64,000 nt of DNA, taken from positions 17,571 through 81,570 of the IMG/VR virus record IMGVR_UViG_3300003324_000363; one strand, 5' to 3'. Position 1 is the first letter of the stretch. Every line of letters begins with the position of its first letter. Origin of the DNA: a virus (Duplodnaviria > Heunggongvirae > Uroviricota > Caudoviricetes). This document shows positions 23,467-55,561 of the stretch, piece after piece. A model generated the notes under the pieces. The model saw nothing but the letters and a program-made list of their open reading frames with translations, made no database searches and was not told where the DNA came from. The translations under genes were made by a program, and so were the position numbers.

Positions 23467-23806
23467 CAGGAGTGTGCCCTAAACATTTGTATATTACACT
23501 TTTTGAACCTGCACTGTTTCCATCCCAAAAGGCAATTACTTTATCAGCATCTGTTATTATTTGATCATTACGAGTATGGTATTTACTTACATCATAGCCA
23601 TCATTAAAGTTTGGAGTGTAGCTTTCTGCATCTGTTTGAAAGCCAAGTGATTTTGCAATTTTGATAGCTTCAGTATCAACACCACGTGCCCCACCTGAAA
23701 TGATTTTTACATTTTCAGCATTGTAGATCAATCTTATCTCTTCCAATTTCTCTCTAACTTTCTTTATATTTTTAAATTCTCTAGAGCCTATAAAAGCTAT
23801 TATCAT
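23414..23806 (-). CDS. SLOG/DprA-like Rossmann-fold protein. Start adjusted to MIIAFIGSREF.
   Basis: Gly-rich loop ISGGARGVDTEA, as in DprA/Smf GxARGID, plus VIAFWDGNSAGSKSVI. The adjusted start abuts the NadV stop. Confidence 0.5.
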   Translation of the reverse strand: MIIAFIGSREFKNIKKVREKLEEIRLIYNAENVKIISGGARGVDTEAIKIAKSLGFQTDAESYTPNFNDGYDVSKYHTRNDQIITDADKVIAFWDGNSAGSKSVIYKCLGHTPVGKTYLFRDVEVVFDAN

Positions 23807-25203: not shown

Positions 25204-25403
25204 GCCCTTCCCCTCGATGAAAAGAATGACGGATTGTATTGGAAAGAAAACCAAATATGGCATACTGGATTTCTACACATTACATTCCCTGCCTTATTGC
25301 CATCTTTAAAATAATGCCGAATTCTTGGAGCAGAATTACATACTTCACAAAGTTCTCCTTCTACATCTTCTATACGTTCCAAGTTGGCTGGATAAATTGT
25401 CAT
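25200..25403 (-). CDS. Zinc-finger protein, 67 aa
   Basis: CEVC...CRNPVCH. Confidence 0.35.
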   Translation of the reverse strand: MTIYPANLERIEDVEGELCEVCNSAPRIRHYFKDGNKAGNVMCRNPVCHIWFSFQYNPSFFSSRGRA

Positions 25404-28844: not shown

Positions 28845-29092
28845 CTTGAAATTCCACCAGTGTCTCTATTCAACATTTCCATAAATTTTGTCTTGGTGTT
28901 TTTTAGTAATTCTTCAAGCTGCATTGCTTCCTCGTTGTTGACATAATCTATATCTAGCACATTGCAAAATTTACGCATTATGAAATCTATATCTTCAGCT
29001 TTCATGTTAGTCTTGAGCAATTCATTCATGGCAGTTAGTGCTCCGAATCCATACCCAATCATAAATCCACGTTCTAAGGTGTTTTCAGTCAT
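28841..29092 (-). CDS. Hypothetical protein, 83 aa
   Basis: ORF. Confidence 0.4.
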   Translation of the reverse strand: MTENTLERGFMIGYGFGALTAMNELLKTNMKAEDIDFIMRKFCNVLDIDYVNNEEAMQLEELLKNTKTKFMEMLNRDTGGISR

Positions 29093-30185
29093 CGTCTTTC
29101 TTTTCCTCTCCTATTCCACCTTTGCCAATTGAAATCTTGACATCAGAGTATGGATGGTTTGGTGAGTCAACTATTTTTATAACCCGGTTTATTCCTGCCT
29201 TTCGTATGTAGATTCTATATGTGCTTGAATGTGCAACCACGTTGCCGCCAGTTGGCTTTATTGGATCGCCAAACATTACATCAGGACTTGCCATTACTTG
29301 ATTTGTAAATAGCACAAGTACGCCATATACATGGGCAATGTTTGTTAGGTGGTGCAGCAGCTTTTCCAGTCTATTCTGTCTGTCATACAATGTGCCACGA
29401 CCTGAAAACTCGGCTCTGTGTGCTGCAATTATACTATCAATAATCAGCATCTTTGTACCATATTCTGATACCCATTTGCCTAGCTGTTTTACTGTAAGCT
29501 CTAGATTGCTTGCATTAAGTATTCTATTGACGTATATCTTTCCTAGTGTTTCTTTTGCATCCATCCCATTTGCTTCTGCAATTTCAACAATTCTCTCTGG
29601 TCTAAATGTACCTTCTGTGTCTAGAAAGATTACAGAATTGCTACCTAGACCGCCTTGCTCTACTGGCTTTAGTGCACGTACTGCCAAACTATGTGCAACT
29701 TGTGATTTGCCAGAGCCAAATTCGCCATATATTTCATAGGTAGAACCTACTTCAAACCCACCTTGCAGCAAAGTATCAAACTTTTCTGAACCAGTTTTCA
29801 GCCTAAGTAAGCTGTTCCTTCTTTCATATTCTGCTGTAGCTGGCACAAATGACTTGCCAATGATTTCTTTTTCTCTAAGCCAGTCTTGTGCTTGCAGAAT
29901 TAACTGCCCGGCTGCTTCACGTTTCAAGTTAACATTATTTATCAAGTCTTCTGGATTGATAACAGCAAGATCAGGAATAGTTTCAACACCCATTACTTTT
30001 AGCTTCTTTACTACAGTTGGTGATATTTCAGGCAATGCCTTTACACTCAATTCTTTCAAATCTGTAGCTGTAGCTTCTATCCTTTCCTCTTCTACCTTTA
30101 CCTGTTCAACTTCTTTCTCTTCAACAACGGCACGTTTTGTATATTTTCGTTTTACTCTACCTTTAGGCAACGGAACATACAACAA
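29085..30185 (-). CDS. radA: RadA/Rad51-type recombinase. N-terminal helix-hairpin-helix domain plus RecA core.
   Basis: Walker A GEFGSGKSQ, then DTEGTFRPER, Walker-B LIIDSI and an N-terminal LKVMGVETIPDLAV HhH region. There is no in-frame ATG near the N-terminus. The listed start is TTG. Confidence 0.8.
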   Translation of the reverse strand: MLYVPLPKGRVKRKYTKRAVVEEKEVEQVKVEEERIEATATDLKELSVKALPEISPTVVKKLKVMGVETIPDLAVINPEDLINNVNLKREAAGQLILQAQDWLREKEIIGKSFVPATAEYERRNSLLRLKTGSEKFDTLLQGGFEVGSTYEIYGEFGSGKSQVAHSLAVRALKPVEQGGLGSNSVIFLDTEGTFRPERIVEIAEANGMDAKETLGKIYVNRILNASNLELTVKQLGKWVSEYGTKMLIIDSIIAAHRAEFSGRGTLYDRQNRLEKLLHHLTNIAHVYGVLVLFTNQVMASPDVMFGDPIKPTGGNVVAHSSTYRIYIRKAGINRVIKIVDSPNHPYSDVKISIGKGGIGEEKKDDD

Positions 30186-31198: not shown

Positions 31199-31617
31199 TG
31201 ATAGTAGTCGTATGTTGATAGATTCTCGTATCCTACACAGCTAAATGTATAGACTTTTCCAGTTTGTATCTTGCTAAACTCAATGTCGATGTTTGTGTTT
31301 AGAAAGTGTGTTTCACGCAATTGTATTACTCTATCATTGTGAGTGATAATATCTTTGCCAGACACCAAGTAGTATGTCACCTTGTTTTCTGGGTCAACCC
31401 ATGTCTTTGTCACATTCATCTTGATGGTAGTTGGCTTTATGTCTGTGCTTACCCAATGTGTTAGTGCCCAATAGATGCCAAATGCTATTGCAGCAACTAT
31501 ACCTATGGCGATTATTTTTCCTATCAATTTGGTATCTGTGCTCCTTCTTGTAAGCTTTTCAAGTCTAGTAAGAATGGTGCGTTTCCACTCATAACAACAG
31601 GCAACTTCCCGTCCCAA
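31183..31617 (-). CDS. NfeD-like membrane protein (one transmembrane helix plus a C-terminal beta domain), partner of the SPFH protein. The start is uncertain and probably lies downstream of 31524.
   Basis: A transmembrane helix IIAIGIVAAIAFGIYWAL is followed by a ~90-aa beta-rich domain. It sits immediately after the SPFH gene. The first 31 codons overlap the SPFH C-terminus. Confidence 0.4.
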   Translation of the reverse strand: MGREVACCYEWKRTILTRLEKLTRRSTDTKLIGKIIAIGIVAAIAFGIYWALTHWVSTDIKPTTIKMNVTKTWVDPENKVTYYLVSGKDIITHNDRVIQLRETHFLNTNIDIEFSKIQTGKVYTFSCVGYENLSTYDYYQCVVA

Positions 31618-32435
31618 CGCTGCACTTCTAGGTAATGGACGTATTCTGGACTTTGCTTTAATTGTTCGTTGATCAACTTGATTGACTCTGCCTGTCCCTG
31701 TGCTTGAGCTATTGATGCATCTCTTTGACCATTGGCTGTTGCTACGGCTTGCTGTGCTTCAAATTCTACCTGCTTTAACTTGTTTTGTGCTTGTAATGCA
31801 TTCTGCTCTGCTGTTACTTTAGCTTCAATAGCTTGATTGAATTGGTCACTAAAGTCAAAATGTGTGATAAGCACTGAATCAATTATGATGCCTCTATATG
31901 ACAAATCATTAGTCAGGGTGCTTTGTATTGCATCTTTTACTTGCTCTCTTTTTGTAATAAGTTCATCTGCATTGAACTTGGCAGTATTTTGTTTTGTAGC
32001 TTCCTGTATTGCAGGAGCAATAAGCACTGATTCATAGCCTGTTCCTACATCATGGTGTAACTTTGGTGCTTGACTTCCATCAATATGATAGTTGATTGTA
32101 ATTTCTGTTTGAACTGTCTGCAAGTCATTGCTAGCTGATGATGAATTAGCAGATATTTTTTGTACTTTTGTGTTATAGATGTGAACTTCATCTTGAATTG
32201 GTGTTACCTGATGAATTCCACTTCCTAATGGCTGACAATAAATAGGTTCATTTGTCTTATCGTCTTTGCCACAAATTGGAACATTGCCCCATTGAGTAAC
32301 AACTCCAACTTCACCTGTACCTACACTTCTAATTGTTGAAAATGACACAGCTACAATGGCGATTACTACCACCACAGCAATGCCTAAAATTACAAATTTG
32401 GGAATATGAAAACTGCCAGAATCCCTTTTACTCAC
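31524..32435 (-). CDS. SPFH/band-7 (stomatin/prohibitin/HflC-like) membrane protein
   Basis: N-terminal transmembrane helix, then GEVGVVTQWGNV, AKFNADELITKREQV and the Ala/Gln-rich coiled coil AIEAKVTAEQNALQAQNKLKQVEFEAQQAV typical of SPFH domains. Confidence 0.7.
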   Translation of the reverse strand: MSKRDSGSFHIPKFVILGIAVVVVIAIVAVSFSTIRSVGTGEVGVVTQWGNVPICGKDDKTNEPIYCQPLGSGIHQVTPIQDEVHIYNTKVQKISANSSSASNDLQTVQTEITINYHIDGSQAPKLHHDVGTGYESVLIAPAIQEATKQNTAKFNADELITKREQVKDAIQSTLTNDLSYRGIIIDSVLITHFDFSDQFNQAIEAKVTAEQNALQAQNKLKQVEFEAQQAVATANGQRDASIAQAQGQAESIKLINEQLKQSPEYVHYLEVQRWDGKLPVVMSGNAPFLLDLKSLQEGAQIPN

Positions 32436-32961: not shown

Positions 32962-33152
32962 TATGATTGTTAACTTAGTATTTACTATATAAATATATTT
33001 AACTATCCTATACCATTTTTTGAATAAGTAATTCTGTATATTTCTTTGTTTTTACCATACGTGCAGCACAATGAACACAAACCTGCTCACGTTTATTTTT
33101 AGCTAGGCTTATGACGTGTGTAGCTACATACTTGCAGTGTTTACATTTTTCA

Positions 33153-33659
33153 TCAGCTTTCAAAAGGCATCCTCACTCTTGTTTTAGTAACAATGTGTTT
33201 GTCAACATCGTTGTAGGCATATAATTCTCCATTGTATGTGCATTTATAGTTGTAGCCTTTTGGTAATCCTGTAACATCATGGTAGAATTCACGTTGTTCA
33301 CGTTTAATGTAAACATTTTCTAGCTTGCCATCCAAGTTTTTTACCCTATCCCTAGTCTTGCCCATAAACCAAAATGCAAGAATTGAACGTCTAACAATAT
33401 ACCCACCTGCAAAGAATTCACAAACATCATTGCATCTTTCTACCTGTTCGGCAGGAACATGAGCTTCAGTTGATTGTGTACTTTTACATTCTATTGACAT
33501 CAATACTCTTACTGTATTATTTACAGCAACCAAATCTGGGAAATCCGTACCACTGCTACCAAGTCTTTTACAAGCATAGCCTTTTGTTTCATTGAATCGT
33601 TTTCTTAATTTGTATTCCCACGCATAGCCACGTTGCCTTCTGATATGCCCAACTCCCAT
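33153..33659 (-). CDS. hjc: Holliday-junction resolvase Hjc-like PD-(D/E)xK nuclease
   Basis: GYAWEYKLRKRF...RLGSSGTDFPDLVAVNN...IECKST matches the Hjc pattern (G.A.E..L...G..SG..PDLV, then E.K). Confidence 0.6.
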   Translation of the reverse strand: MGVGHIRRQRGYAWEYKLRKRFNETKGYACKRLGSSGTDFPDLVAVNNTVRVLMSIECKSTQSTEAHVPAEQVERCNDVCEFFAGGYIVRRSILAFWFMGKTRDRVKNLDGKLENVYIKREQREFYHDVTGLPKGYNYKCTYNGELYAYNDVDKHIVTKTRVRMPFES

Positions 33660-33665
33660 TATTTA

Positions 33666-33884
33666 TTACACTCTTACCAACTTTAGTAGCTTGACTGCAC
33701 GTTGTCTGCATCTTTTGTTTCTACCACGTGTTCGTAAGCTGAAATGGCAACATGGACAGTTTCTACCATCCCATGCCAAGAATATTTGGCAGACAGTGCA
33801 TCTTTTGTAGCCATCGGCATAATATCCAGTATGATAGCCTAGCTTTTTTGCTTTGTATCTAACACACAGCCCATTGCATGTCAT
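33666..33884 (-). CDS. Zinc-finger protein, 72 aa
   Basis: CNGLC...CTVC...CPCCH. Confidence 0.45.
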   Translation of the reverse strand: MTCNGLCVRYKAKKLGYHTGYYADGYKRCTVCQIFLAWDGRNCPCCHFSLRTRGRNKRCRQRAVKLLKLVRV

Positions 33885-35317
33885 GCCGTATCTCTCCTTT
33901 TGCTTAGAAATGGTGCTAGACGGTTCTTTGCAATTTGTATATAGTCTTTGTTTAGCTCTATTCCTACAAAATCTCTACCTAGCTTTGATGCAACTAAGCC
34001 AGCTGTACCTGCCCCAAAGAATGGGTCTAGCACAATTCCGGGCTTTGTATTTGCATTTTCACAATCACAATCTGGATAGTATTCTCCTACCTTTCTTATG
34101 ATTGTCTGTCTGAATTTTGACAAGTCTGAATTATGCAATCCTTTATTTGGATCGTCATCTGTACCACTCTTCATTGTTCCTGTATTCTTACCGGGTCTTG
34201 TGTTAACACGTTTTTCTTCCATGTTTCTTATCCATGGCTTGTTACATATTGTGCAAATTTTTATTGGACAGGTTGCCAGAATTGGTGTTACACATAATGC
34301 TTCTGGGAATACTGCCGTATGTTCCATGTGAAATGATTGTGTTGTTATATCCCACACGCATCTTTTGATCCGTCCAAACAGCACCGGTGCCCATGGCTTT
34401 CCAGAGTATGTTGGGTTTCCATACAATGCTGCTTTGTTTCCTCCAAACTTTGGCATTTTCTTTGCGTATGTTCCGTCAATACGCATTCTGTGTGGGTTGT
34501 TTTGTCTGTGTGGCTCTTTACTGTTTGCACCAGTGTTTGCCAATATTGATTTAATGATATTCCTTTTAGCATCTGATGGATTTTGTGCATTTGCTGATTT
34601 GTAATCTTTTGTTGCCTGTCCTTTGTAAGCTTTTTTTATTTCTTCTAATGTTATGGAACTGTATGGCTCATACTGTGTTTCAAAATAATAATCATCGTCC
34701 TTTACAAACCATAAGATGTATTCCCAATCACGTGTAAAGCCACGTTTATCACTCTGAGGCATTGAATTTGGCTTCTTCCAAATTATCTCACGTTTCAGCT
34801 TCCAACCACTAGCTTTCATTCTGAACCCAAGTGCTGCTGGGATTTGTTGCAAATCACCATCTATCATTTTATCACCCATGTTCACCCAGAAACTGCCTGA
34901 CTTTTTCAGCACTCTTCTGATTTCATCAAATATTTGCATCAAATGGTCAAGATACAAACATACTGTTGGTTCTTGCCCTAATTCGCCATACCAACCACCA
35001 CAGTCTAAGCAAGTGCTATATGAAATTTCAGTATCTGGAACTGGTTCTTGTTCACTATATTTCCCACTCTTTTGTGCATCACCACGACCAGAATGCAATT
35101 TTGTTATTTTCTTTGCTTGTGCAATGTGTGGACAATCTTCAAATTCATCCCACCATTGCAAATCTGTATGATAACTACGCATCCTGTAATAAGGCGGACT
35201 TGTTATGCACATGTCTATGGATTCAGATGGCAACTGCTTCAGGATAGCTAAAGAATGTCCTTGATAGATATGATTTCTAATTAAATCTTGATTGCTCTGT
35301 TGTATTTCTTTTTGCAT
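33881..35317 (-). CDS. DNA amino-methyltransferase (beta-class, N4-cytosine or N6-adenine) with a large Cys-containing insertion
   Basis: Motif IV CITSPPYY is N-terminal and motif I LDPFFGAGTAGLVASKLGRDFVGIELNKDY is C-terminal. That is the beta order. SPPY is most typical of N4C MTases. Confidence 0.75.
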   Translation of the reverse strand: MQKEIQQSNQDLIRNHIYQGHSLAILKQLPSESIDMCITSPPYYRMRSYHTDLQWWDEFEDCPHIAQAKKITKLHSGRGDAQKSGKYSEQEPVPDTEISYSTCLDCGGWYGELGQEPTVCLYLDHLMQIFDEIRRVLKKSGSFWVNMGDKMIDGDLQQIPAALGFRMKASGWKLKREIIWKKPNSMPQSDKRGFTRDWEYILWFVKDDDYYFETQYEPYSSITLEEIKKAYKGQATKDYKSANAQNPSDAKRNIIKSILANTGANSKEPHRQNNPHRMRIDGTYAKKMPKFGGNKAALYGNPTYSGKPWAPVLFGRIKRCVWDITTQSFHMEHTAVFPEALCVTPILATCPIKICTICNKPWIRNMEEKRVNTRPGKNTGTMKSGTDDDPNKGLHNSDLSKFRQTIIRKVGEYYPDCDCENANTKPGIVLDPFFGAGTAGLVASKLGRDFVGIELNKDYIQIAKNRLAPFLSKRRDTA

Positions 35318-35709
35318 TGAAATTCAATCTCCTCAATCACACCTTCATCGTCAGAAGCAGTCTCTTGTTTTGCTGATTTGTTAACGAGCCATTCTGTTGG
35401 TAGTCTTCCTGTCATAAGTCCATATTTTTCCCATAGTTGTGAATCACGAAAATCATCTTGTGCCTTAGCTTGTGTTGTTGTATGCCCTACATTGCCATCA
35501 ACTTCTAGCACTAATGTGCTATCAGCTTTCACTGCCAGCACATCAGCAATATATTCAATTTTTTGTACCGTTGGAAAAACATCAGGTACTTCAATTGCCG
35601 GCAGTTTGAATTCTAAAGATACAGACCAGCCTTTTTGCTCTAGAATATTTTTCAGTCGTAGTTTTCCAGTTAAGTGTTGGACACTTTCGCCACCATTGCC
35701 TCCTGCCAT
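35281..35709 (-). CDS. DUF559/Vsr-like PD-(D/E)xK endonuclease-domain protein
   Basis: IADVLAVKADSTLVLEVDGNVGHTT...DDFRD matches the DUF559 core (DF...LVIEVDG..H...D..R). Confidence 0.45.
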   Translation of the reverse strand: MAGGNGGESVQHLTGKLRLKNILEQKGWSVSLEFKLPAIEVPDVFPTVQKIEYIADVLAVKADSTLVLEVDGNVGHTTTQAKAQDDFRDSQLWEKYGLMTGRLPTEWLVNKSAKQETASDDEGVIEEIEFQCKKKYNRAIKI

Positions 35710-35761
35710 CCCACCGTCTTTCAGGAGAAAGCCAAGCTATAAATGTTACTATAGATTTTTA

Positions 35762-36025
35762 CTATACAGTTTTTGTATTAGCATCACTATATGAAACTAT
35801 AAAGCCATCACGTATTACAAGTTTGATCTTGTCTGTCTTTCTTGATAGCAAAAACAATTGTATGAAAGGTGTCAACTTGTTATCGAGAATAGCTTCATTT
35901 GTGGTTGTTGATAGATTGCTTGCAGCCACTGGCTTTAGCAAATCTTGCTTTTCAATAATTTCTTTAAGTTCGGCAATCTCTTCTAACAAGTCTTGACGAC
36001 TTCTCACATCATACGTTTCTGCCAT
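35762..36025 (-). CDS. Hypothetical protein. The track start is GTG, so I adjusted to the ATG (MAETYDV...).
   Basis: ORF. A 23-nt AT motif lies upstream. Confidence 0.35.
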   Translation of the reverse strand: MAETYDVRSRQDLLEEIAELKEIIEKQDLLKPVAASNLSTTTNEAILDNKLTPFIQLFLLSRKTDKIKLVIRDGFIVSYSDANTKTV

Positions 36026-36213
36026 AGATAGACCAATCCAGCTGGCAACTAATATACCCACTGTTACCCTAAAATTTTATATAAAATATCTTATATAAAA
36101 AATTATATATAGGATATTTGCATTGGTCTTTAGGAATAGTAATGAAGAAGCACATTGCCATTCCTGACATCCCAACCAGAGGTGTGGGATATTACTCCTG
36201 CACCTTTGGGTCT

Positions 36214-37026
36214 TTATCTCACGTTTAGCAGAATTTCATTCTCTCTACGTTTGTTGATACGGATTGCACTGCCCCACTTGCTTTGCAATCGTTTTATGCT
36301 TTCCTGCTCAATTTTAGCTGTTCTGTATTGCACAACTCCACCTTTGTTTGTATAATGTGCAAATTCAGCAAAAATATCATTGTTTCGTAATACTCCACCA
36401 TATTTTTGGATATGCTGTAGTGTATAATCATAGTCTTCCTTTGTCTTAAATTCTTCATCAAAGTAAAGTTCATTTGGCAACACCATTATGAAACTAGCTA
36501 TTATGAAGCTGGCAGTGTTGATTAGCTTTTTTGGATCAAAATAAAACAAATTTGTTGTAGGTGCAACACCTGCTAGCTTTATCATATTTTTCGTGTCTTT
36601 CAAACGAGTTCTCATCAATTCTACTGTAGATGCAAATGTTATGTCACATGTTGATTTTGTCAGTGTTTGTCCTTTTCCTAATGCTTCTGATGGTGCATCA
36701 AGCACTGTTGCAAGCTTTAGCTTTTTCAAGTCATCGTCAAGCATAACACATGGTATGTTTAATTTCCAAGCATCCTTTAATGCTTCATTTCTGCTATGGC
36801 ATAGCCCACTTGCAATCTTTATTTCTACATTTTCCAAATCATGCTTTGTGACTTCTGTTGTATAATCTCGAAGGTCTTGCTCATCAGCTACATACCATGT
36901 TGCACCACCATCTATTTTTTCATACATGTCTGCAACATTTTGAGGTCTTCTGTGGCTGACAATTGCTACAAAAGCATCTACATCTTTTCTATGCGTCATC
37001 TTCCTTTTCCTTTGTTCTGTCCTCAA
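36214..37026 (-). CDS. GT-A-fold glycosyltransferase-like protein, a candidate DNA glycosyltransferase
   Basis: An N-terminal beta-strand FVAIVSHRRPQN and a DxD motif CVMLDDD about 95 aa in. This layout is typical of GT2/GT-A enzymes. It sits next to a 2OG-Fe(II) dioxygenase. Confidence 0.45.
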   Translation of the reverse strand: MRTEQRKRKMTHRKDVDAFVAIVSHRRPQNVADMYEKIDGGATWYVADEQDLRDYTTEVTKHDLENVEIKIASGLCHSRNEALKDAWKLNIPCVMLDDDLKKLKLATVLDAPSEALGKGQTLTKSTCDITFASTVELMRTRLKDTKNMIKLAGVAPTTNLFYFDPKKLINTASFIIASFIMVLPNELYFDEEFKTKEDYDYTLQHIQKYGGVLRNNDIFAEFAHYTNKGGVVQYRTAKIEQESIKRLQSKWGSAIRINKRRENEILLNVR

Positions 37027-37969
37027 CTACTTCTTGGTTTATGGCACTTTCATATGGTATAACTTCACCTGCATCTAATCTACGTTTGACATTTTCCCCA
37101 ACTTTTCCAAACATTTTCATGACTTCTGGATTGTGTATGCCTCCCATTTTTGTAAGCTGCAATCTACGTTGTTCACGTTCTGTCTTTCGTTTTCTTATAC
37201 GTATGATTTCTTCATTGACTGTTTGGCATTTCCACATTTGTTTCAATGTATAGTAAACTATGGTGAATCTATAACCTTCTTTGCTAACTATTTTGAAAGG
37301 TGTGACACCATGCAGTATCTTTTGCCCATCAAAAAATAGCAAGCTGTGGTCAGCTATTTCCAATCCTATGTCATATGATGGTATAGAAAGATGCCCTCCC
37401 TTGCAATCTTTCTTGAATGCTACCATGTTGCTGTAAACATCATCAAAATTGCCAGCATCAAAGTGATACTTTAATGGGTTGTTCTTGTTAATGATTCCAG
37501 AAGTAAATGGTGTGCCTTCTATCACCCAATCTTTCTTTACTTTTTCATTTACAATGTCTTCATGTACTTTGAATATTTCTGGAGCATGAACCTTATACAA
37601 CTCTGTGCAAACCTTGCCAAATTCACATACTTCTGTATGAGTTTTTGGGTCTTCTCTTGCCAAGCTTACTGCACTGCAATAGTCTTTACGAATTGTTTCT
37701 CTAGGCATATAACCAAATATTCTGCTTGTTGTCCTAAGTCCCTGTGTTCTAAAATTGTAGCTGTATTTTATTTTAGCAATGTCTTCAACAAGTTCATGAT
37801 GGCTATCTGGCAAATTCAGATAGATTGCAATAAGTCTATCACCATCATAGATTTTGCATGGATAGTCTATGAATTGATGGTAGTCCTCATCAAGTGCCGT
37901 CCGTTTCTTATATTTAGCTAAATCTATTTCTCTATCTGTTACCCGTACTGTTTCAACCGTGTTGCTCAT
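36989..37969 (-). CDS. 2OG-Fe(II) dioxygenase-superfamily protein, possibly TET/JBP-like nucleic-acid base oxygenase
   Basis: HxD at KYHFDAGNF, a second His in ILHGVTP about 50 aa later, and an Arg in GYRFTIVYY about 10 aa after that. This is the spacing of the double-stranded beta-helix iron site. The DNA-modification context fits. Confidence 0.5.
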   Translation of the reverse strand: MSNTVETVRVTDREIDLAKYKKRTALDEDYHQFIDYPCKIYDGDRLIAIYLNLPDSHHELVEDIAKIKYSYNFRTQGLRTTSRIFGYMPRETIRKDYCSAVSLAREDPKTHTEVCEFGKVCTELYKVHAPEIFKVHEDIVNEKVKKDWVIEGTPFTSGIINKNNPLKYHFDAGNFDDVYSNMVAFKKDCKGGHLSIPSYDIGLEIADHSLLFFDGQKILHGVTPFKIVSKEGYRFTIVYYTLKQMWKCQTVNEEIIRIRKRKTEREQRRLQLTKMGGIHNPEVMKMFGKVGENVKRRLDAGEVIPYESAINQEVVEDRTKEKEDDA

Positions 37970-38591
37970 ATTTGTTCATCAGAAACAATACAGCATCTGT
38001 ATTTGACTCTAGTTTATTTTCTGCCATTATCTTTTCAAACTTTGTAAGCACTTCTTCATATTGCTCTGGCGTAAAATATAGGGTTATCTGTCTAACTGTC
38101 CCATGCAGATATGTATTCAATCTTGATTCTAATGGCGATGGATCTTTTGTAATCAGATTAGGAGAATCGGCATTGCCCATAAGAGCACGCATTGTTTCAA
38201 GTTCTGATTCATTTATACCAAGCAATGATTCCAATCTTGCAGCATCATTTTGCATGATAAGCTCCAACTCAGCAACATCCTTGTCAAGCTGGTGCTCACC
38301 ACGTAGCTTATTCATAGCCTGTCTTATGATTCTACGTTCAATATCATTTTGCACTTCGACTCTAACAACAGGTATGTTAGTTTCACCTTGTGCTTTCATA
38401 ATTAAAAATCTATGCTCACCATCAACAATAACATCATTCTGGTCAATAATTACTGGTTGTAAATAACCAAACTGTCTAATTGATTCTGCCAGTCCAGACA
38501 TCTGCTTGTCATTAAGCTGGTTTGGGTTGTCAGGGTCTAACTTTATGGTATTAACATCAACAATGTCAGTTTTATGGAATTTTATAGCCAT
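37953..38591 (-). CDS. ParB-like nuclease (ParB N-terminal/sulfiredoxin-fold) domain protein
   Basis: LQPVIIDQNDVIVDGEHRF matches the ParB box (L.P..V....ILIDGHHR). Confidence 0.55.
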   Translation of the reverse strand: MAIKFHKTDIVDVNTIKLDPDNPNQLNDKQMSGLAESIRQFGYLQPVIIDQNDVIVDGEHRFLIMKAQGETNIPVVRVEVQNDIERRIIRQAMNKLRGEHQLDKDVAELELIMQNDAARLESLLGINESELETMRALMGNADSPNLITKDPSPLESRLNTYLHGTVRQITLYFTPEQYEEVLTKFEKIMAENKLESNTDAVLFLMNKYEQHG

Positions 38592-38621
38592 CTGCTGATG
38601 GATGCTACAGAGAAGCTGTTA

Positions 38622-38924
38622 TTAAGGCTTGTGAAATACAGTTTCTTGCTCTGCAATTGAATTCAATGTTTCAATTGCCTCTACACCATAGTCTGTTATT
38701 CTCCAGACACCATCAACACATGTAGCCATTTTTTGAGATTTAGCATATTTCAAATATTCTTTGATTTGAGGATGACTTAAACGGGCAGCAAACATGATGT
38801 TTGTCATAAGTATGCCGTTAGCTCCAGAGTTTTTGATATGTTGCAGTACATCACGTAATATTACGTGTCTGCTTCTATATTTTTTCCCCTTATTATTTCT
38901 ACCAATAGATTTAGCATCTGCCAC
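38622..38924 (-). CDS. Winged-helix DNA-binding protein, 100 aa
   Basis: Basic N-terminus, then a recognition-helix-like segment and a wing. Confidence 0.4.
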   Translation of the reverse strand: MADAKSIGRNNKGKKYRSRHVILRDVLQHIKNSGANGILMTNIMFAARLSHPQIKEYLKYAKSQKMATCVDGVWRITDYGVEAIETLNSIAEQETVFHKP

Positions 38925-38981
38925 ATGTTTCCCTACTTTAAAAGTCAGTTAACAAGTAATTAAATATATTTATATAAAATA

Positions 38982-39016
38982 GCTTGTCCGTTATTGCTTC
39001 TAACTAACGGACAAGC
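38982..39016. promoter_or_regulatory. Perfect 12-bp inverted repeat GCTTGTCCGTTA-(11 nt)-TAACGGACAAGC. Candidate operator or terminator between two winged-helix genes.
   Basis: Seen directly. A TATA-like TTTATATAAAATA lies at 38969-38981. Confidence 0.45.
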
Positions 39017-39102: not shown

Positions 39103-39381
39103 TTATGGGGACAAATGTATGTTAATTTTTGCCTTCCCATGTGATGTTAGTATGTAAACTGCCTTTATTCTTTCATCTTTGCCTCTTGATGTTACATTTC
39201 TTGGTGGTGGAGCTGCCATGACAGCATTTTCATTGATTAGCTGTTCCAATACTTGTTTTGCTTTTGGCTCGCCAAGTCTAGCTTTCAACATTATGTGGTT
39301 CATATTTACTGCGTCATAGCCTATTGCCGATAAAACAGCAGACACGATTGTTTCAGAATCACGCTTCTTGACCTTTGACAT
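39103..39381 (-). CDS. Winged-helix DNA-binding protein, 92 aa
   Basis: Helix-turn-helix-like ETIVSAVLSAIGYDAVNMNHIMLKARLG. Confidence 0.4.
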   Translation of the reverse strand: MSKVKKRDSETIVSAVLSAIGYDAVNMNHIMLKARLGEPKAKQVLEQLINENAVMAAPPPRNVTSRGKDERIKAVYILTSHGKAKINIHLSP

Positions 39382-39682
39382 CCCTGTGCTCCCTCTGCAT
39401 AATCAAACTTTGTACCATGCCTTGTATTCTGTCCATGACTCCTTCCTCATACATGATTGCTGCTAGAATGTGTTTGCATCTGTAGCCTTCCTTCATTGCC
39501 CGGTACACAAAATCAGGACATGTGCACCCAGCTTTAAACTTGTCCTTGCCATCAACCATTACATCGTAGCCACGTATTTTGTAAAAGCCAGTTATTTTCT
39601 CGTTTGGAAAAACTGCACCCTGATAGTACAGTTCGTTTGCTTTTTCTAGTCTATCCCCTCGTTCTTCCCATGCAACTTGCAT
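39359..39682 (-). CDS. SWIM zinc-finger protein
   Basis: CTCPDF...YRCKHILAA is the SWIM CxCxnCxH signature. Confidence 0.55.
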   Translation of the reverse strand: MQVAWEERGDRLEKANELYYQGAVFPNEKITGFYKIRGYDVMVDGKDKFKAGCTCPDFVYRAMKEGYRCKHILAAIMYEEGVMDRIQGMVQSLIMQREHRDVKGQEA

Positions 39683-39771
39683 TTTGACATCCCATATCCA
39701 TTTTTCAGTAGTAAGAGTATTATATAAATATATTTTAGTTAATTCATATTAAGTTTTATATAAAATAGTTT

Positions 39772-41589
39772 TTAGCTCCAGAAATTGAGTGTAAGTTGAC
39801 CACGTGTTATGGCTCGTATATCCTTTCCCAGCAACTGGAGAATATCGCCAAATGCAGATTCAAATGTCTTCTCATACTCTTTTTTGTCCAAGTCATTAAA
39901 GCTGTTTACTTTAATTGCTACACCATTGTGGGTTTTCCAGTAATATACAACATCACCGGCACTGGCGTTTGCCATCTGCCCTAGCTTTTTGTTTTGGTTC
40001 TCACTTTCATAATCTTCCCAATTTCTTGTAAGCTTGGTTGAATAGAATAGCTGGTTCAAGCTTACATTTCCTGCTCTAAATTCATCGTATGTTGCCTGTA
40101 ACAGTGTTGATGGGTCTAAGCCATTTGCATAGTCACGTGTAAATTGAGCAAATGCTTCATTAATCCATTTTGGTCTATCGTTCTTTTCTGCCTCTATGCC
40201 AGCTACAACAATATCACCATCTTCTTTCACCCCTATGTAGTGTTTTTTGCCTGTAATCATAAATCTTGCATAAGTTTTGTCATGCTCCAATTCCAAGCCT
40301 AGTTTTGCCTTTACATCTTCGATTATCTTACGTGCAGTTTCAGCATCAGAATTAGGGAACATGATAGAATCAGTGTCGCCATATATTACAGTGCAGCCAT
40401 GTGTTTTTGCTATTTCAATAATCTGCATGATATAGTGGCGTTCAAATGCTATTATACTGTCATAACATCTTACATCTGAATATTCATAGTATGGATTGTT
40501 GAATAAACCTGTTTTTGCATTCATTACAATTTTCAAACCATCTGCCATGACTTTATTGCCATTCCTTTTATGCACCATTCTTTCCTCACGCATTTCTGTA
40601 AACTTGGTAGTTACTGCACCTTTCTTCTGTTTGCATGACCATAGCAATGGTTTGTTTGGTACTTTTGAAGATTCTAAATCCCTGCAACATTCACAGCACA
40701 TTGCATCTGGGCTTATGTTATGCTTTATGATTATTGATGGATACAAGCTTGCAACGTCAAGCACTACAACATTTCTATAGTCACCAACAACTGGCTCTAG
40801 CACTATCGGCCCTTGTCGTTTCTTACGTTTTCCATGAGCTGCATCATTTGGCATTTCTGGTCTAAATTCAATAGGTGTTTCTGGCATTTTCATGTCACGC
40901 AGTATCTTTCGCCAGATTGAAGACATGCCAAAGTTACATATGGTTTGAATTGGAAGTCCTGTTTTATCTGCTAAAGCATACATTAATTTCATTAACCCAT
41001 AGTCACGTTTTGGCATCTTTGTTTTCTTGTCTATATCGCCAACCTGTGCCAGCTTGAATGTTAGTCTAGCATCGTTTAGACAGTATTCTTTCTGCTTTTC
41101 AACGGTCATTGATTCGGCAGTTGAACCTGTAATGCCTTCTGTCTTACCTTCACCTAGCAATGCTTTAGCTACACTTTGCAGTTTTTGATCTTTGTATCTC
41201 TTTTTGAAAATATAGTTTCTTACTACACCTTTATCAAATATCATAAACAGGTCAATATGTGTTCTTCCATGTACTGGCTCTGGAAGCATACGTTGTATCT
41301 TTCTAGGATTCACTATTGAACTTAGGTGATATTTTTGACACCTTTGGTGTAGCACATCAAAGTCTGACCCTTCACCAGTTGTATAGTAGCCAATGGTTAA
41401 TGGGTACTTCATTATTTTCTTGTTTATCTTTTCTAATAGTTCCTCTTCATCTGGGAAATCATCTAGATGGTAAACATCTTCATTGCCCATGTCGTCAACA
41501 AAAGCAGCACAATACAACTCCCCTGTTTTCTTCCATTCAAAGTCGAAAGCTGCATAGTTTTCAAAATTGTTAAAGCTAGACATTATCAT
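39772..41589 (-). CDS. polB: Family-B DNA polymerase. Start adjusted to MIMSSF... (the track start is 41715).
   Basis: Exo I FDFEW, Exo II YYTTGEGSDFDVL, Exo III YCLNDARL, motif A LDVASLYPSII, motif B KIVMNAKTG and motif C YGDTDS are all present. Confidence 0.9.
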   Translation of the reverse strand: MIMSSFNNFENYAAFDFEWKKTGELYCAAFVDDMGNEDVYHLDDFPDEEELLEKINKKIMKYPLTIGYYTTGEGSDFDVLHQRCQKYHLSSIVNPRKIQRMLPEPVHGRTHIDLFMIFDKGVVRNYIFKKRYKDQKLQSVAKALLGEGKTEGITGSTAESMTVEKQKEYCLNDARLTFKLAQVGDIDKKTKMPKRDYGLMKLMYALADKTGLPIQTICNFGMSSIWRKILRDMKMPETPIEFRPEMPNDAAHGKRKKRQGPIVLEPVVGDYRNVVVLDVASLYPSIIIKHNISPDAMCCECCRDLESSKVPNKPLLWSCKQKKGAVTTKFTEMREERMVHKRNGNKVMADGLKIVMNAKTGLFNNPYYEYSDVRCYDSIIAFERHYIMQIIEIAKTHGCTVIYGDTDSIMFPNSDAETARKIIEDVKAKLGLELEHDKTYARFMITGKKHYIGVKEDGDIVVAGIEAEKNDRPKWINEAFAQFTRDYANGLDPSTLLQATYDEFRAGNVSLNQLFYSTKLTRNWEDYESENQNKKLGQMANASAGDVVYYWKTHNGVAIKVNSFNDLDKKEYEKTFESAFGDILQLLGKDIRAITRGQLTLNFWS

Positions 41590-42691
41590 GCTCCTCCTGT
41601 TGGGATTTTCTGCCATATGCCAATGGATTTCTGATGCCTGCACAACCACTGTCTTCAAAGCACCATCCCAAGTTCTTGAGCTTGTCACAATTATTTGGAC
41701 TGTAGCCTTTATCAACTATAAAGTTTACCTGATAGTTTGTAACTGATTCCTTGTAATCAGGTGCATTCTTGAACATGTCGGCTATTTCATCAGCCGGCTT
41801 GCCTAGTTTGTTCATGTAGCTAACAAACAATATTCTTGCTGTATGTGGCACATTTTCACCTTTGCTAAATAAGTCCAGCACATGTTGGATGCATGGAGGA
41901 TATTTTTGTGGTACAAAGCTAGCTGTGCTAAACTGTATATTGTATTGCTCACTCAATAATTCAGCAGATTCAATTATTTGAAATGGCATCTTATTCATGG
42001 GCAATTGTAAGGAAGCAATACGGTTTACAAGCAGTTCTTCAATTTCATCTCTTGCAAAACGGATCAGCTCCTTTTCTGATAGTGAAACATAACCACCATG
42101 GACAACCTGATTTACTAGCTTCCAGTCCTTGCTATGGAATTTTACTGACCTTTTCAAGTATTCTGGAACACGTAGCAGGTATGCTAGTTTTGGCTGCCAT
42201 TCTTCACCATGTCTCAGTGCATTTTTCTTTTCAAATTCAATGATGTTTTTACAGTTCTCACAGTCATCAAAAATAGGTCGATGCTCTACTGCCATCTTTA
42301 AATCACGTCTTAGAATTTGTAATACAAACTCATGCATTGCTTTATCTCTAAGTTTAATGTGCTCTGTCAAGCTATCCAGTAAAAACTGCTCTGTTCGTTT
42401 GGCTATTGAAAGTGCAATCTTATGATAGAGTTTTGGATTGTTTGTTAATTTGCAAATTGATAGGATTATAATGTAAAGTTGCGCCTCTGTTTTTACATTT
42501 TCCAAGTTAGTATTGAATTCACTCTTTAGAGCAATATTGATTCGTGACATGGCTTTCTCTACCAGTGTTTCAATATTGGCAGCCTGCATTGTTTCCTCAA
42601 AAAATGAGTTTGGACTAGCAGGTTTTGCATCAGCTAGCCATGGGTATTTGGCTAGATCGTTTCCACCTGCTTCTATTATGCCAGTTTCCAT
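41576..42691 (-). CDS. priL: Archaeo-eukaryotic primase large subunit (PriL) with a C-terminal 4Fe-4S domain
   Basis: The C-terminal block YPPCIQHVL...KGYSPNNCDKL...WCFEDSGCAG parallels the eukaryotic/archaeal PriL FPPCM...KGYSY...C.K...GC iron-sulfur domain. Confidence 0.6.
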   Translation of the reverse strand: METGIIEAGGNDLAKYPWLADAKPASPNSFFEETMQAANIETLVEKAMSRINIALKSEFNTNLENVKTEAQLYIIILSICKLTNNPKLYHKIALSIAKRTEQFLLDSLTEHIKLRDKAMHEFVLQILRRDLKMAVEHRPIFDDCENCKNIIEFEKKNALRHGEEWQPKLAYLLRVPEYLKRSVKFHSKDWKLVNQVVHGGYVSLSEKELIRFARDEIEELLVNRIASLQLPMNKMPFQIIESAELLSEQYNIQFSTASFVPQKYPPCIQHVLDLFSKGENVPHTARILFVSYMNKLGKPADEIADMFKNAPDYKESVTNYQVNFIVDKGYSPNNCDKLKNLGWCFEDSGCAGIRNPLAYGRKSQQEEHDNV

Positions 42692-44766
42692 CCTTCCTCA
42701 CCTTCATAAGTGCCCCAATACATGAAATCGCCATCTTTTTTGTACTTTGCAAGAACTGATCTGGCATCTTCTTCTGTCCACCCATGATTTTCCATCAATC
42801 TTTGTCTTAGTTCTTTAGGAGTTGCAAAATATTCAGTACGTAATGTTCCGTCTTTTAGTGACTTGAATGCTGATCGTAAAATGTCTTCAGTAGATTGCTT
42901 TATCTTTACTTCTCTGGTTGGCATATCGCCATTGGCTATTGCTGGGTCTAGCTTTTGAGTTAGTGGGTCAAATGCTGTTATACGCATTGATGTGTCTAGC
43001 AGTTTTACAGCAACATCAACATCGACCATTTCAACTTCTGGCTTTTGTAAGTATCTAGCATGAGCTAATGCAAATCTAACTGCACTGTTGATGTATCTCG
43101 GAGTAATCAAGCCTTTCAGGTCTTCAACTTGCCTTTTCTTTTGATAGTATTCAACAATGCGTTGATAGATTTCAGGTGTTAGTTTTGGAATTGGCACATG
43201 TTTTGCTACATACATGATGTACTTTTTCATGGTTTTGAAGCCAAATCTTTCTTGTGTGTCATTCATGTATTCTTGCCAGTATTTGTCACTAAAGTTTTCA
43301 AGTACTCTTCGAGCCACCAATGCGTCAGTTTCTGGATTTGGTCTATCTAGTACAACAAAGATAGAGTCAAATCTTGTTATGAAACTAGGTGGCATGAATT
43401 TCAAATTCTTTTGTATGTCTTTTTGCTCATCCCAATATGGGAATACACTGTTGCAGGCAAATAGCCATGCACAATCTGATGGCAGTGTACCTTTCTCTGT
43501 TCCTCTTGCATATGAACAGGTTTTGTTTGACCCTATTTCATGCAGTCTTTGAAATATTTCTGGTGTGCTTTTATCAAACTCATCGCCAGCACTTATGCCT
43601 CTGTGACAGCTTGGGAAAAAACCGGGTGTTATCATAAATTGATTTGTATCTTTGTCTTTACTTGCTATAACTGTCAAACCTGATGGCGTACTTGTTGCAA
43701 ATGATGTGTAGGCTGAATTTGGTGCATATGATGCTGTTCTTAACAGCAAAGCTGTCTTGCCTGTTCCCGGTGTTCCTGCCAAAAGCAGGTTTATGCTAGT
43801 TGCATCAGAATGTGATGGGCTTTTGTTTAATGATTCTGAAAGCAAGTTTATGCTTGCACATTGTAAGATTAATGCTTCTTTTACATCTTCCATGCCAATT
43901 ACTTCTGGAGCAAATGATTTGACAGACTTCTCCCAAAAGTCAGGTTCTTTCGACATGCCGTTGCTGAATTTAGCTACATCGTCTGGTGTTAATTCATACT
44001 CTTCATTTTCATTTCCTGTATCTTCGATGTTGTTAGCCCATAGAACGTATGATGGTTGCTGCTTTTCTGTTGTTGGCATTTCAATTGTAAGATAGCCAAA
44101 TATGTCAATGCTTCTACCTGCATTTATTATTCTGTCACACAGGTCTTTGCCTTTTACCCATACTTTCAAATTCATTGGAGCTGTTGATGCTTTTACTGGC
44201 ATCAAAATTATTGTTCTGGTGTCTTCAACTTCCTGTTCAATTATTGCTGGGAACTTGTCTTTGCAGTTTATGCATTCTTTTGCAGGTCTAGCTTGCTCAA
44301 CATGTGATTGTGAAACTGTTATGCCGTCAAACCCACAGCCCATGCAGTGGTATGTCATTTTTCTTATCCATGGTGTGTTGCTTGTTATGGCACCTACTCT
44401 GCCATTTATTGTAACTAGCTTGCCGTTGTAAAACCCACCAATGTCTTTTAGCCCAATTCTACTGCCTGATATGTTGTGGAATCTTACTATTGGCTCGATA
44501 GCTGAATTGCCATAAATTTCGATTAGAATTAGTCTTACTGCATCAGTGAATGCTTTGTGTGCCAATGGAAAATTGTTTATGATCAAATTCAGTATTTTCT
44601 TGCCATTTTCACTTTCCATTAGATGTTTTCCATCAACAAACACAGTTCTGCTTTCTTGTGTCAGTCCTGATATTATATCTGAGTATATTTTGAAGGTATC
44701 TAGCTCATAACTATCAAGCCATTGCCTGATAGTTTCTACTGTCTTTCCTATTGTTGCTGTTGACAT
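42676..44766 (-). CDS. mcm: MCM replicative helicase
   Basis: N-terminal C4 zinc finger CMGCGFD...CINCKD. P-loop LLAGTPGTGKT. MCM Walker-B DEFDKS. MCM arginine-finger motif TRFDSIFVVLD. Confidence 0.85.
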   Translation of the reverse strand: MSTATIGKTVETIRQWLDSYELDTFKIYSDIISGLTQESRTVFVDGKHLMESENGKKILNLIINNFPLAHKAFTDAVRLILIEIYGNSAIEPIVRFHNISGSRIGLKDIGGFYNGKLVTINGRVGAITSNTPWIRKMTYHCMGCGFDGITVSQSHVEQARPAKECINCKDKFPAIIEQEVEDTRTIILMPVKASTAPMNLKVWVKGKDLCDRIINAGRSIDIFGYLTIEMPTTEKQQPSYVLWANNIEDTGNENEEYELTPDDVAKFSNGMSKEPDFWEKSVKSFAPEVIGMEDVKEALILQCASINLLSESLNKSPSHSDATSINLLLAGTPGTGKTALLLRTASYAPNSAYTSFATSTPSGLTVIASKDKDTNQFMITPGFFPSCHRGISAGDEFDKSTPEIFQRLHEIGSNKTCSYARGTEKGTLPSDCAWLFACNSVFPYWDEQKDIQKNLKFMPPSFITRFDSIFVVLDRPNPETDALVARRVLENFSDKYWQEYMNDTQERFGFKTMKKYIMYVAKHVPIPKLTPEIYQRIVEYYQKKRQVEDLKGLITPRYINSAVRFALAHARYLQKPEVEMVDVDVAVKLLDTSMRITAFDPLTQKLDPAIANGDMPTREVKIKQSTEDILRSAFKSLKDGTLRTEYFATPKELRQRLMENHGWTEEDARSVLAKYKKDGDFMYWGTYEGEEGWKLA

Positions 44767-45508: not shown

Positions 45509-46001
45509 TACACAAACTATAAACCGGTATTATAAAAATCTACTTTAAGATTTTATATAAAATATCTTATATAGAATTTTTTATATAAAATTCTTTTTCA
45601 TTTTACATTACATTACATTACATTACAAGTACATAGTATAAGTACAGCTAGTAAGTAGTAGAAGTAGTAGTAGAAATGATGGTAGTGTTGTACTTGGAAA
45701 CTGAAATTAAATGTTTATAATTATTAATTAAATGTTAAATAAATAAATCAGAATTGAACGTAAAACAGGTGTTTTAAATTTATTAAACTTTTAATTGTAG
45801 TTTTCAAATTTTCTTTCCAACCCATTTTTTCAAAAGCTCAACAGGAAAACTTAGGCAATTAACGTATTAGAAATCACCGGTAGCAGTGACATGATAGGCA
45901 ATCGTTTTCTGCCACCGGTGATTGATGAGTCACGAAGGGTTGGGTCTATACAGAGGATGTCAGCGTGATAGTAGAAAATACGTTGTCATATAAAAATATA
46001 T
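45509..46001. other. ~490-bp AT-rich non-coding region. Candidate replication origin and/or structured non-coding RNA.
   Basis: No ORF of 60 aa or more on either strand. It contains (ACATT)4 at 45605-45624, an AGT-rich tract at about 45654-45675, and a 10-bp perfect inverted repeat AATCACCGGT / ACCGGTGATT (45872-45881 and 45914-45923) nested inside CCAACCC / GGGTTGG pairing (~45823-45829 and ~45934-45940). It lies next to the replication genes. Confidence 0.45.
45605..45624. repeat. Pentanucleotide microsatellite (ACATT)x4
   Basis: Seen directly. Confidence 0.8.
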
Positions 46002-50993: not shown

Positions 50994-50998
50994 TTATC

Positions 50999-51823: not shown

Positions 51824-51825
51824 AA

Positions 51826-53919: not shown

Positions 53920-53921
53920 TT

Positions 53922-55534: not shown

Positions 55535-55561
55535 TGAGCATCATTCTACAATAGCTGTATT

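Follow-up and report, generated by a model that had tools for sequence, protein, structure and literature searches.

We identified three overlapping genes as the probable DNA-hypermodification unit of a tailed virus whose replication genes are of archaeal type; they encode a ParB-like protein, a dioxygenase of the TET/JBP family and a glycosyltransferase of the TET-associated type (TAGT). The genes lie in IMG/VR virus record IMGVR_UViG_3300003324_000363, of which we analysed a stretch of 64,000 nucleotides (positions 17,571 to 81,570; hereafter the window) out of a source contig of 99,684 bp, and the results on gene absence hold within these 64 kb. We consider it rather probable that the ParB-enabled dioxygenase turns thymine in the replicated viral duplex DNA to 5-hydroxymethyluracil (5hmU), and that the TAGT enzyme glycosylates this product to give a base-J-like base. 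The triad belongs to an interval, 33153-38591 of the window, in which the ORF listing shows eight co-directional open reading frames (ORFs) on the minus strand. A first-pass annotation had described six consecutive genes here; all six exist, on the minus strand and with exactly the ends it gave, but two further ORFs, 33666-33884 (72 aa) and 35762-36061 (99 aa), lie among them. Profile searches were run against Pfam (including its gathering cut-offs, GA), PHROG and NCBIfam, and about 110 ORFs of the window were scanned with Pfam. From upstream to downstream, the three genes of the unit are:

37953..38591, minus strand: ParB-like protein, 212 aa, with an N-terminal ParB/Srx CTPase-type domain, a linker and a C-terminal domain
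36989..37969, minus strand: TET/JBP-family Fe(II)/2-oxoglutarate 5-methylpyrimidine dioxygenase (5mYOX), 326 aa, assigned by Pfam and predicted fold
36214..37026, likely 36214-36999, minus strand: putative TAGT with a GT-A fold

Tet_JBP (PF12851) is the only Pfam family that the dioxygenase matches above the cut-off (E 8e-14, 51.6 bits against a GA of 34.9), and neither AlkB nor PhyH is matched in Pfam at E<=1. The first-pass annotation had proposed a 2-oxoglutarate/Fe(II) oxygenase with HxD...H...R geometry, to be compared with the TET/JBP, AlkB and PhyH profiles, and the comparison comes down on the TET/JBP side. In 30 aligned homologues H169-x-D171, H220, R234 and C248 do not vary, from which we read that the HxD...H iron triad and the 2-oxoglutarate-binding arginine are present. 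Searched against the PDB, the single sequence returned nothing and the profile returned only CMD1, in a marginal match that aligns H220 with the HG motif of that enzyme. The AlphaFold (AF2) model, with a predicted local distance difference test score (pLDDT) of 87, is more telling, as its best 26 Foldseek matches in the PDB are NgTET1 (2.5e-13), CcTet, CMD1 and human TET2, down to 6e-10, and AlkB-type structures (ALKBH2/FTO) rank below the TETs at 1e-7. A prolyl hydroxylase, the identity that had been named beforehand as fatal to the proposal, is excluded by these folds, which are all TET; together with the lack of any such Pfam match, the fold ranking also rules out AlkB and PhyH. Past C248 the protein continues for 78 residues; E254, R257 and R269 are conserved there, and a long helix is predicted at 251-275. 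Metagenomic homologues number more than 1000, at about 50% identity, and all of the 120 listed ones carry PF12851. By its profile and its modelled fold, the oxygenase is a true TET/JBP-family DNA dioxygenase.

A side remark concerns the names given to its relatives. TET/JBP homologues in phrog_6059 and in Mycobacterium phage records (e.g. NC_024145, NC_023603, NC_028742) are labelled 'queuine tRNA-ribosyltransferase' or 'DpdA-like tRNA-guanine transglycosylase'. A queuine tRNA-ribosyltransferase role, as given in PHROG and GenBank, is at odds with the Pfam matches and with the predicted fold, which indicate that these labels on the mycobacteriophage homologues are wrong and have been propagated.

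The gene for the ParB-like protein lies directly upstream and overlaps the start of the dioxygenase gene by 17 nt. Its sole Pfam match is ParB_N (PF02195, E 8.5e-8, residues 11-83), and a profile of 24 TET-adjacent ParB proteins aligned, in the PDB, with Myxococcus ParB, Noc and Spo0J over their N-terminal CTPase domain only (positions 9-125 of 199). G58..R61, N94 and Q168 are invariant in the alignment, a 'KQIxLYF' motif followed by helices is conserved in the C-terminal part, and no helix-turn-helix (HTH) was found by Pfam, by the PDB profile search or in the alignment. Activator ParBs have been described as a nucleotide-binding domain plus a C-terminal domain, without a DNA-binding HTH (O'Toole et al., PNAS 2026, PMC13229309). 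[quoted passage not shown] By analogy, the ParB-like protein is most likely the activator partner of the adjacent dioxygenase and not a nuclease. Of the earlier call of a ParB-like nuclease domain, the domain therefore stays and the nuclease most likely goes; the label 'ParB-like nuclease' is misleading in annotation pipelines.

Downstream, the probable start of the glycosyltransferase gene is the ATG at 36999 (the JGI call, 261 aa), which overlaps the stop of the dioxygenase gene by 11 nt and is preceded by a purine-rich stretch. The protein matches phrog_842, and 27 of 30 homologues match TAGT (best E 2.8e-10) and no other Pfam family. Invariant among the 30 are R27, D98-D99 (in LDDDL), K196-E-D-Y-D200 and H224. 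The motif R27...D97-D99...E197-D198-Y199 reads as R...DDD...EDY/F, the pattern reported for phage 5mYOX-associated GT-A enzymes and for the trypanosome base-J glucosyltransferase (JGT). The AF2 model (pLDDT 90.6) finds PDB structures of the GT-A fold, and its best match in BFVD is a 'TET-Associated Glycosyltransferase domain' protein (E 4.7e-21, TM 0.81/0.89, root-mean-square deviation 2.2); an enzyme of Klebsiella phage PKO111 is also matched there. About 300 homologues were found, one of them named 'TET-Associated Glycosyltransferase' at its source, and many share contigs with TET homologues. The GT-A (DxD) glycosyltransferase of the first-pass annotation is borne out by the fold and the DDD motif, and the profile comparison with TAGT gave a sub-threshold score, which structure, motifs and homologues rescue; judged by these, the protein is in all likelihood a TET-associated GT-A enzyme. 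A capsule or lipid glycosyltransferase was considered and rejected, the sole match of that kind being WcaA at E 4e-3, far under its NCBIfam cut-off.

How regularly do the three genes travel together? We collected 88 related loci which, with that of the window, make a census of 89, and their ORFs were called, clustered and profile-searched. A ParB gene lies no more than four genes from TET in 83 of the 89, and of the six loci that deviate, five are truncated by the end of their contig. A glycosyltransferase of the window family is found near TET in 52 of the 89 loci (34 with a strict profile). Both associations are far beyond chance. The exact order ParB-TET-glycosyltransferase occurs in at least 10 loci, including L004/L005, L010, L046, L072, L074, L075 and L085. 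Other frequent neighbours of TET are terminase genes, P-loop kinase 3, an FkbM methyltransferase, a second glycosyltransferase, a PIG-L deacetylase, an FAD oxidoreductase and a SPASM radical-SAM protein, and downstream of TET the relatives carry sugar-handling genes, namely PIG-L deacetylase and, in L094, UDP-glucose dehydrogenase with an epimerase.

Several of these loci are of interest in themselves. At 8453-13557 of L094 the genes are ParB, a NUMOD3 homing endonuclease, TET, a 244-aa gene, UDP-glucose dehydrogenase and epimerase; at 7452-10708 of L006/L007, on a contig binned into a Nitrosopumilus metagenome-assembled genome (MAG), they are ParB, TET, a SPASM radical-SAM protein and a glycosyltransferase. 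L001 (Logan SRR33230370, a 100.7 kb contig) is a sister archaeal-type virus with MCM, the primase large subunit (PriL), RadA and Hjc. Its positions 9253-14490 hold ParB-TET-ParB-TET, followed by an ADDT-like gene (amino-acid:DNA transferase, a faint match) and an FAD-dependent oxidoreductase in place of the glycosyltransferase, which suggests that L001 uses a different thymine hypermodification than the window virus. The closest glycosyltransferase (48%) is that of L004, a 39-kb contig on which ParB-TET-glycosyltransferase stands beside terminase. Tail genes are common to L004 (496-5911) and the window (48426-60233), at 24-34% identity. Since L004 shares both tail genes and triad with the window, the module is also present in smaller relatives of this group of viruses.

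On this basis the pathway probably runs as follows. After replication, the dioxygenase would hydroxylate thymine at its C5-methyl group in viral double-stranded DNA, yielding 5hmU, with H169/D171/H220 as the iron triad and R234 binding 2-oxoglutarate. On duplex DNA it would require its ParB-like partner, as 5mYOX176 requires ParB176. The GT-A enzyme would then move a sugar from a host nucleotide-sugar to the new hydroxyl, leaving glycosyl-5hmU at a subset of T sites. The likely benefit is that viral DNA is shielded from host nucleases or marked as self against non-self. Folds, catalytic residues, gene order, the conservation of the triad and the lack of a C5-methyltransferase in the window are shown by our data, whereas substrate base, ParB dependence, sugar and biological role are inferred.

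The choice of thymine is suggested by what is missing around the triad. A Pfam scan of the window ORFs found no C5-methyltransferase, ThyA or ThyX, and tblastn found no C5-methyltransferase or ThyA in the 64 kb. A search seeded with M.HhaI and M.HaeIII found a C5-methyltransferase in only two of the 89 related loci (L035 and L038, near ParB-TET), hits that serve as a positive control; in the literature about 6% of 5mYOX contigs carry one (O'Toole et al., 2026). The lack of a C5-methyltransferase or thymidylate synthase in the window, the count of two in 89 and the published work on ParB-associated 5mYOX enzymes together favour the thymine route over one through 5-methylcytosine (5mC). The first-pass annotation had likewise preferred a thymine-directed, JBP-like chemistry to the 5mC route, and our results side with it.

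The unit fits the subclass of ParB-dependent phage thymine dioxygenases (5mYOX clade C1, with 5mYOX176/ParB176; PMC13229309) on every feature that our sequence comparison tested. Both have a PF12851 enzyme with an adjacent ParB-like gene, a ParB of nucleotide-binding and C-terminal domains without an HTH, a dioxygenase that extends past its last conserved Cys, a hypermodification enzyme downstream and, for the window over its 64 kb, no neighbouring C5-methyltransferase. The differences are that the downstream enzyme of the window is a TAGT glycosyltransferase instead of a kinase/AADT/GATase set, that its virus has an archaeal replisome, and that the NPR of ParB reads NPN. Base J synthesis in trypanosomatids (JBP1/JBP2 and JGT) shows the same two predicted steps, T to 5hmU and then glycosylation by an R...DDD...EDY GT-A enzyme. 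Unlike that pathway, the window has a separate putative ParB activator and a viral instead of a chromosomal context, and Pfam found neither the J-binding domain of JBP1 nor the SNF2 ATPase of JBP2 in the dioxygenase, whose tail is the helical extension. The window proteins are related to JBP and JGT at the superfamily level only; in its predicted action the unit resembles base J synthesis, but it does not belong to that system.

Among phages, the clusters of C5-methyltransferase, TET and glycosyltransferase that act on cytosine (Burke et al., PNAS 2021, PMC8256090; bioRxiv 10.1101/2023.12.21.572611) also rely on post-replicative TET oxidation followed by glycosylation with a TAGT-type GT-A enzyme, and ParB and terminase genes are often nearby. 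They start from 5mC made by an adjacent, GpC-preferring C5-methyltransferase, whereas the window is devoid of one. Closer in gene content is cultured Arthrobacter phage Lilmac1015, whose genes 65-69 comprise ParB, a small ORF, TET and a glycosyltransferase that shows homology along its whole length and retains the motifs, although a glucosaminyl deacetylase is added there. In Rhodococcus phage Tonitrus (genes 1-7), ParB and TET are accompanied by aGPT-Pplase2 and a kinase in place of the glycosyltransferase. These actinophage clusters share only 23-34% identity with the window and have bacterial hosts; as far as we found, no DNA modifications have been reported for Lilmac1015 or Tonitrus. The glucosylation of hydroxymethylcytosine in T-even phages (beta-glucosyl-HMC-alpha-glucosyltransferase of T2/T6) involves the same glycosyltransferase family (phrog_842) and likewise places sugar on a 5-hydroxymethylpyrimidine in viral DNA. 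Here, too, there are differences: the T-even hydroxymethyl base is made before replication at the nucleotide level, whereas oxidation in the window virus is predicted to follow replication, and the T-even TAGT adds a second glucose to a sugar, whereas the single glycosyltransferase of the window would have to act on the base itself.

The triad is flanked by further genes on the same strand:

38622..38924, minus strand: small winged-helix protein of 100 aa, its gene 30 nt upstream of that for ParB (NCBIfam Sso10a_fam 7.7e-9, below cut-off)
36062..36213, minus strand: AT-rich spacer of 152 nt downstream of the glycosyltransferase gene, with T-runs and two TATA-like boxes (36078-36085, 36092-36099)
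35762..36061, minus strand: 99-aa ORF without a Pfam, PHROG or NCBIfam match
35281..35709, minus strand: 142-aa Vsr/DUF559-like PD-(D/E)xK protein (CoiA_nuc 1.2e-4 over the N-terminal 44 residues, MTES_1575 0.06)
33881..35317, minus strand: beta-class amino-DNA methyltransferase, 478 aa (N6_N4_Mtase PF01555, E 4.1e-39; phrog_67, 1e-55)
33666..33884, minus strand: 72-aa Cys-rich, zinc-ribbon-like ORF without a family match in Pfam, PHROG or NCBIfam; its start overlaps the methyltransferase end by 4 nt
33153..33659, minus strand: Hjc-type Holliday junction resolvase, 168 aa (PF01870, E 3.3e-9, 37 bits against a GA of 21.1; phrog_6591)

Two of the earlier calls for these genes are confirmed. The Hjc-like resolvase scores above its Pfam cut-off and shows the PD...ExK pattern (DFPDL...IECK), with an NCBIfam equivalog score below cut-off. 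The beta-class SPPY amino-methyltransferase is recovered both by profile and by motif order, SPPY standing near the N-terminus and DPFFGAGT near the C-terminus; its NCBIfam matches are all far below their cut-offs. By the rule established for motif IV, SPPY suggests N4-cytosine specificity, and the product is probably N4-methylcytosine (m4C). The methyltransferase is unusually long; an insert of about 200 residues, placed between its motifs IV (SPPY) and I, carries the Cys pairs CLDCGG, CPIKICTIC and CDCEN and may be a zinc-binding target-recognition domain. A third call, that of a DUF559/Vsr-like nuclease, survives in part: the pattern 'EVDG..H.......D.RD..L...G' is recognisable by eye and the call rests mainly on it, but at E<=1 Pfam reported neither PF04480 (DUF559) nor PF03852 for the 142-aa protein, only the weak CoiA_nuc and MTES_1575 matches.

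An octamer, TTTATATA, helps to divide the interval. Its 23 copies in the window compare with 4.3 expected, a frequency reached in none of 100 shuffles, and almost all of them stand in the gaps between genes, upstream of a gene and on the minus (coding) strand (e.g. at 5169, 17820-17889, 23026, 27342, 32986, 36078-36099, 38971, 39721-39764 and 45554-45589). The copies look like archaeal TATA boxes and could be used to map transcription units. Upstream of the triad the nearest copy is at 38971-38978, ahead of the winged helix-turn-helix (wHTH) gene 38622-38924, and there is none between this gene and the glycosyltransferase gene, so the wHTH gene is probably co-transcribed with the triad as the first gene of its unit. 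The spacer 36062..36213 is likely a terminator/promoter boundary. Boxes and spacer would thus define two units, wHTH-ParB-TET-glycosyltransferase (38978 to about 36100) and 99-aa ORF-Vsr-like-methyltransferase-zinc ribbon-Hjc (36099 to about 33000). Conservation follows the same line. In the 88 other loci, the methyltransferase and the 99-aa and 72-aa ORFs have no homologue near TET, and Hjc and the Vsr-like gene have homologues near TET in L001 only; as L001 also shares MCM and PriL with the window, this argues for a shared backbone and not a shared module. A single six-gene island with 'three nuclease-fold proteins', as first annotated, is therefore not what we find: the functional unit is the overlapping, translationally coupled triad. 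The neighbouring genes for the methyltransferase, Hjc, the Vsr-like protein and both small ORFs serve functions of their own, and the methyltransferase is an independent modification enzyme.

A number of points weigh against glycosylated 5hmU as the product of the triad. For the window virus, the pathway is a prediction from its genes. The window glycosyltransferase itself scores below the cut-off of TAGT (PF20691; E 9.7e-5, 22.8 bits against a GA of 27.5), and one putative CTP-contact residue of ParB differs in the window protein (NPN for NPR). A C5-methyltransferase or a dCMP-modifying enzyme could lie in the other 36 kb or so of the contig, or the host could supply 5mC. From the literature (O'Toole et al., 2026; PMC13229309) it is known that characterised phage T-dioxygenases oxidise 5mC too in vitro and that most ParB-dependent homologues gave less than 5% 5hmU in E. 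coli, which makes activity levels uncertain. In the same survey glycosyltransferases are typical of the ParB-independent clade C2, and kinases and AADTs of the ParB-dependent clade, so the pairing of ParB and glycosyltransferase in the window falls between the two clade descriptions, even though glycosyltransferase (31%) and ParB (27%) head the overall list of co-occurring domains. Membership of subclass C1 is proposed from the shared features.

The main rival is a cytosine route, in which a C5-methyltransferase encoded in the remaining 36 kb or by the host makes 5mC, TET oxidises it to 5-hydroxymethylcytosine (5hmC) and the glycosyltransferase acts on that, as in clade A/B systems. Phage pathways of TET, C5-methyltransferase and glycosyltransferase leading to glycosyl-5hmC are experimentally established (Burke et al., 2021; PMC8256090), the window leaves 36% of the contig uncovered, phage T-dioxygenases are able to oxidise 5mC, and L035 and L038 do carry a C5-methyltransferase near ParB-TET. 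We nonetheless regard this route as unlikely. In 5mC systems the C5-methyltransferase normally adjoins TET, a place taken here by ParB and the glycosyltransferase; the 64 kb hold no C5-methyltransferase, ThyA or ThyX; two loci in 89 are few for this TET subfamily; and the ParB-associated clade has been shown to be T-directed (O'Toole et al., 2026). Rather less plausible still is an action of the dioxygenase on N-methylated bases written by the neighbouring amino-methyltransferase, N6-methyladenine (m6A) or m4C, as fungal CcTet acts on 6mA. One of the best structural matches is CcTet in complex with 6mA DNA, and the N6/N4 methyltransferase gene is 1.7 kb from TET, yet such a gene stands beside TET in no related locus and the conserved partners are ParB and a glycosyltransferase, which needs a stable hydroxymethyl group. 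N-hydroxymethyl adducts, as formed in AlkB/TET N-demethylation, do not provide one, and of all the alternatives we give this one the least credence.

Between these two extremes stand two further explanations. All eight genes might form one integrated island, in which the methyltransferase, Hjc, the Vsr-like protein and the ParB 'nuclease' act with TET and the glycosyltransferase, for instance by destroying unmodified host DNA while sparing that of the virus. The genes are contiguous and co-directional, L001 has Hjc and a Vsr-like gene within 8 kb of TET, and endonucleases (17%) and N6/N4 methyltransferases (about 2%) are known from the literature to co-occur on 5mYOX contigs. Against this speak the lack of homologues of the methyltransferase and of both small ORFs near TET in the 88 other loci, the sharing of Hjc and the Vsr-like gene with L001 only, as backbone, and the AT-rich spacer with its T-runs and TATA-like boxes, which parts the glycosyltransferase gene from the rest; Hjc, moreover, is an ordinary recombination and packaging function of archaeal viruses. 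This makes an integrated island improbable, somewhat more so than the cytosine route. Finally, the dioxygenase might stop at 5hmU (or 5-formyluracil or 5-carboxyuracil), and the glycosyltransferase might have a target other than DNA, such as a virion protein or a component of the host envelope. Its PDB fold matches are indeed polysaccharide and protein glycosyltransferases, and archaeal viruses encode GT-A enzymes without a known target, e.g. A197 of STIV. But its gene overlaps the TET stop codon, its family accompanies TET in 52 of the 89 loci, TAGT is the only Pfam family that it matches, and it has the motif of the DNA-acting phage GT-A and JGT enzymes, all of which makes a non-DNA target very unlikely. 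Conversion of thymine to glycosylated 5hmU by the ParB-TET-TAGT triad thus remains our preferred explanation.

As to the virus itself, the archaeal replisome noted in the first-pass annotation was found, and with it a tail gene:

29085-30185: RadA (Rad51 match, 2e-73)
39772-41715: PolB
41576-42691: PriL
42676-44766: MCM
55562-56440: tail tube protein

Judged from its genes, the virus is tailed and has an archaeal-type replication set (MCM, PriL, PolB, RadA, Hjc). Its lineage is rare, as MCM has six relatives among 5.8 billion proteins. The best GTDB matches of RadA reach just 36-37%, in a Nitrosopelagicus MAG and an unclassified MAG contig, and by tblastn against phage records MCM is 21-26% identical to haloarchaeal, Thermococcus and Altiarchaeum viruses. 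No DNA match to known phages was found for 33000-39000, and no tRNA genes were found in the window. Overall scale and gene content suggest a resemblance to Magrovirales, to which we found no sequence link. PolB is short (647 aa), with an exonuclease region of the RNase_H_2 type, and its ORF as listed overlaps that of PriL by 140 nt (41576-41715), the true start, now a TTG at 41715, being probably farther downstream. Between PolB and the triad, the ORFs 38622-38924, 39103-39381 and 39359-39682 encode two small winged-helix proteins, with weak matches to the Sso10a family of archaeal chromatin proteins, and a SWIM zinc-finger protein. Amid the replication and recombination block sits a membrane protein of the SPFH/Band 7 type, stomatin/prohibitin-like (31524-32435; PF01145, 1.7e-29), which has one homologue (40%) in L084. 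A nicotinate phosphoribosyltransferase-like gene (23803-25263; PF04095, 2.4e-13) and a small ORF with a 'wHTH-PRTase associated' domain match (wHTH-PRTase_assc) point to a possible auxiliary function in NAD salvage.

The type of system described here is already known from bacteriophages (2021-2026) and is no new kind; what stands out is its occurrence in a virus of archaeal type. Post-replicative thymine oxidation by ParB-activated TET/JBP enzymes was established in 2025-2026 with bacteriophage-derived sequences only, archaeal sequences made up less than 1% of the 5mYOX superfamily as surveyed (O'Toole et al., 2026), and we found no paper that links TET/JBP or hydroxymethyluracil hypermodification to archaeal viruses. 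We see evenly balanced chances that the lineage as a whole (the window virus, L001, possibly L004 and L030/31; archaeal tailed viruses of about 100 kb) post-replicatively makes glycosylated 5hmU from thymine by means of a ParB-activated TET/JBP enzyme. If so, this would be, as far as we found, the first case of either thymine hypermodification or a base-J-like base among the viruses of Archaea, and the ParB/5mYOX/TAGT module would cross the boundary between bacterial and archaeal viruses. Restriction-based or nanopore/bisulfite-type analyses of such viral DNA may then be biased. The triad is a compact three-gene set for heterologous testing. A ParB-TET-TAGT operon in an archaeal-type virus would extend this chemistry to the viruses of Archaea, and predicts base-J-like DNA there.

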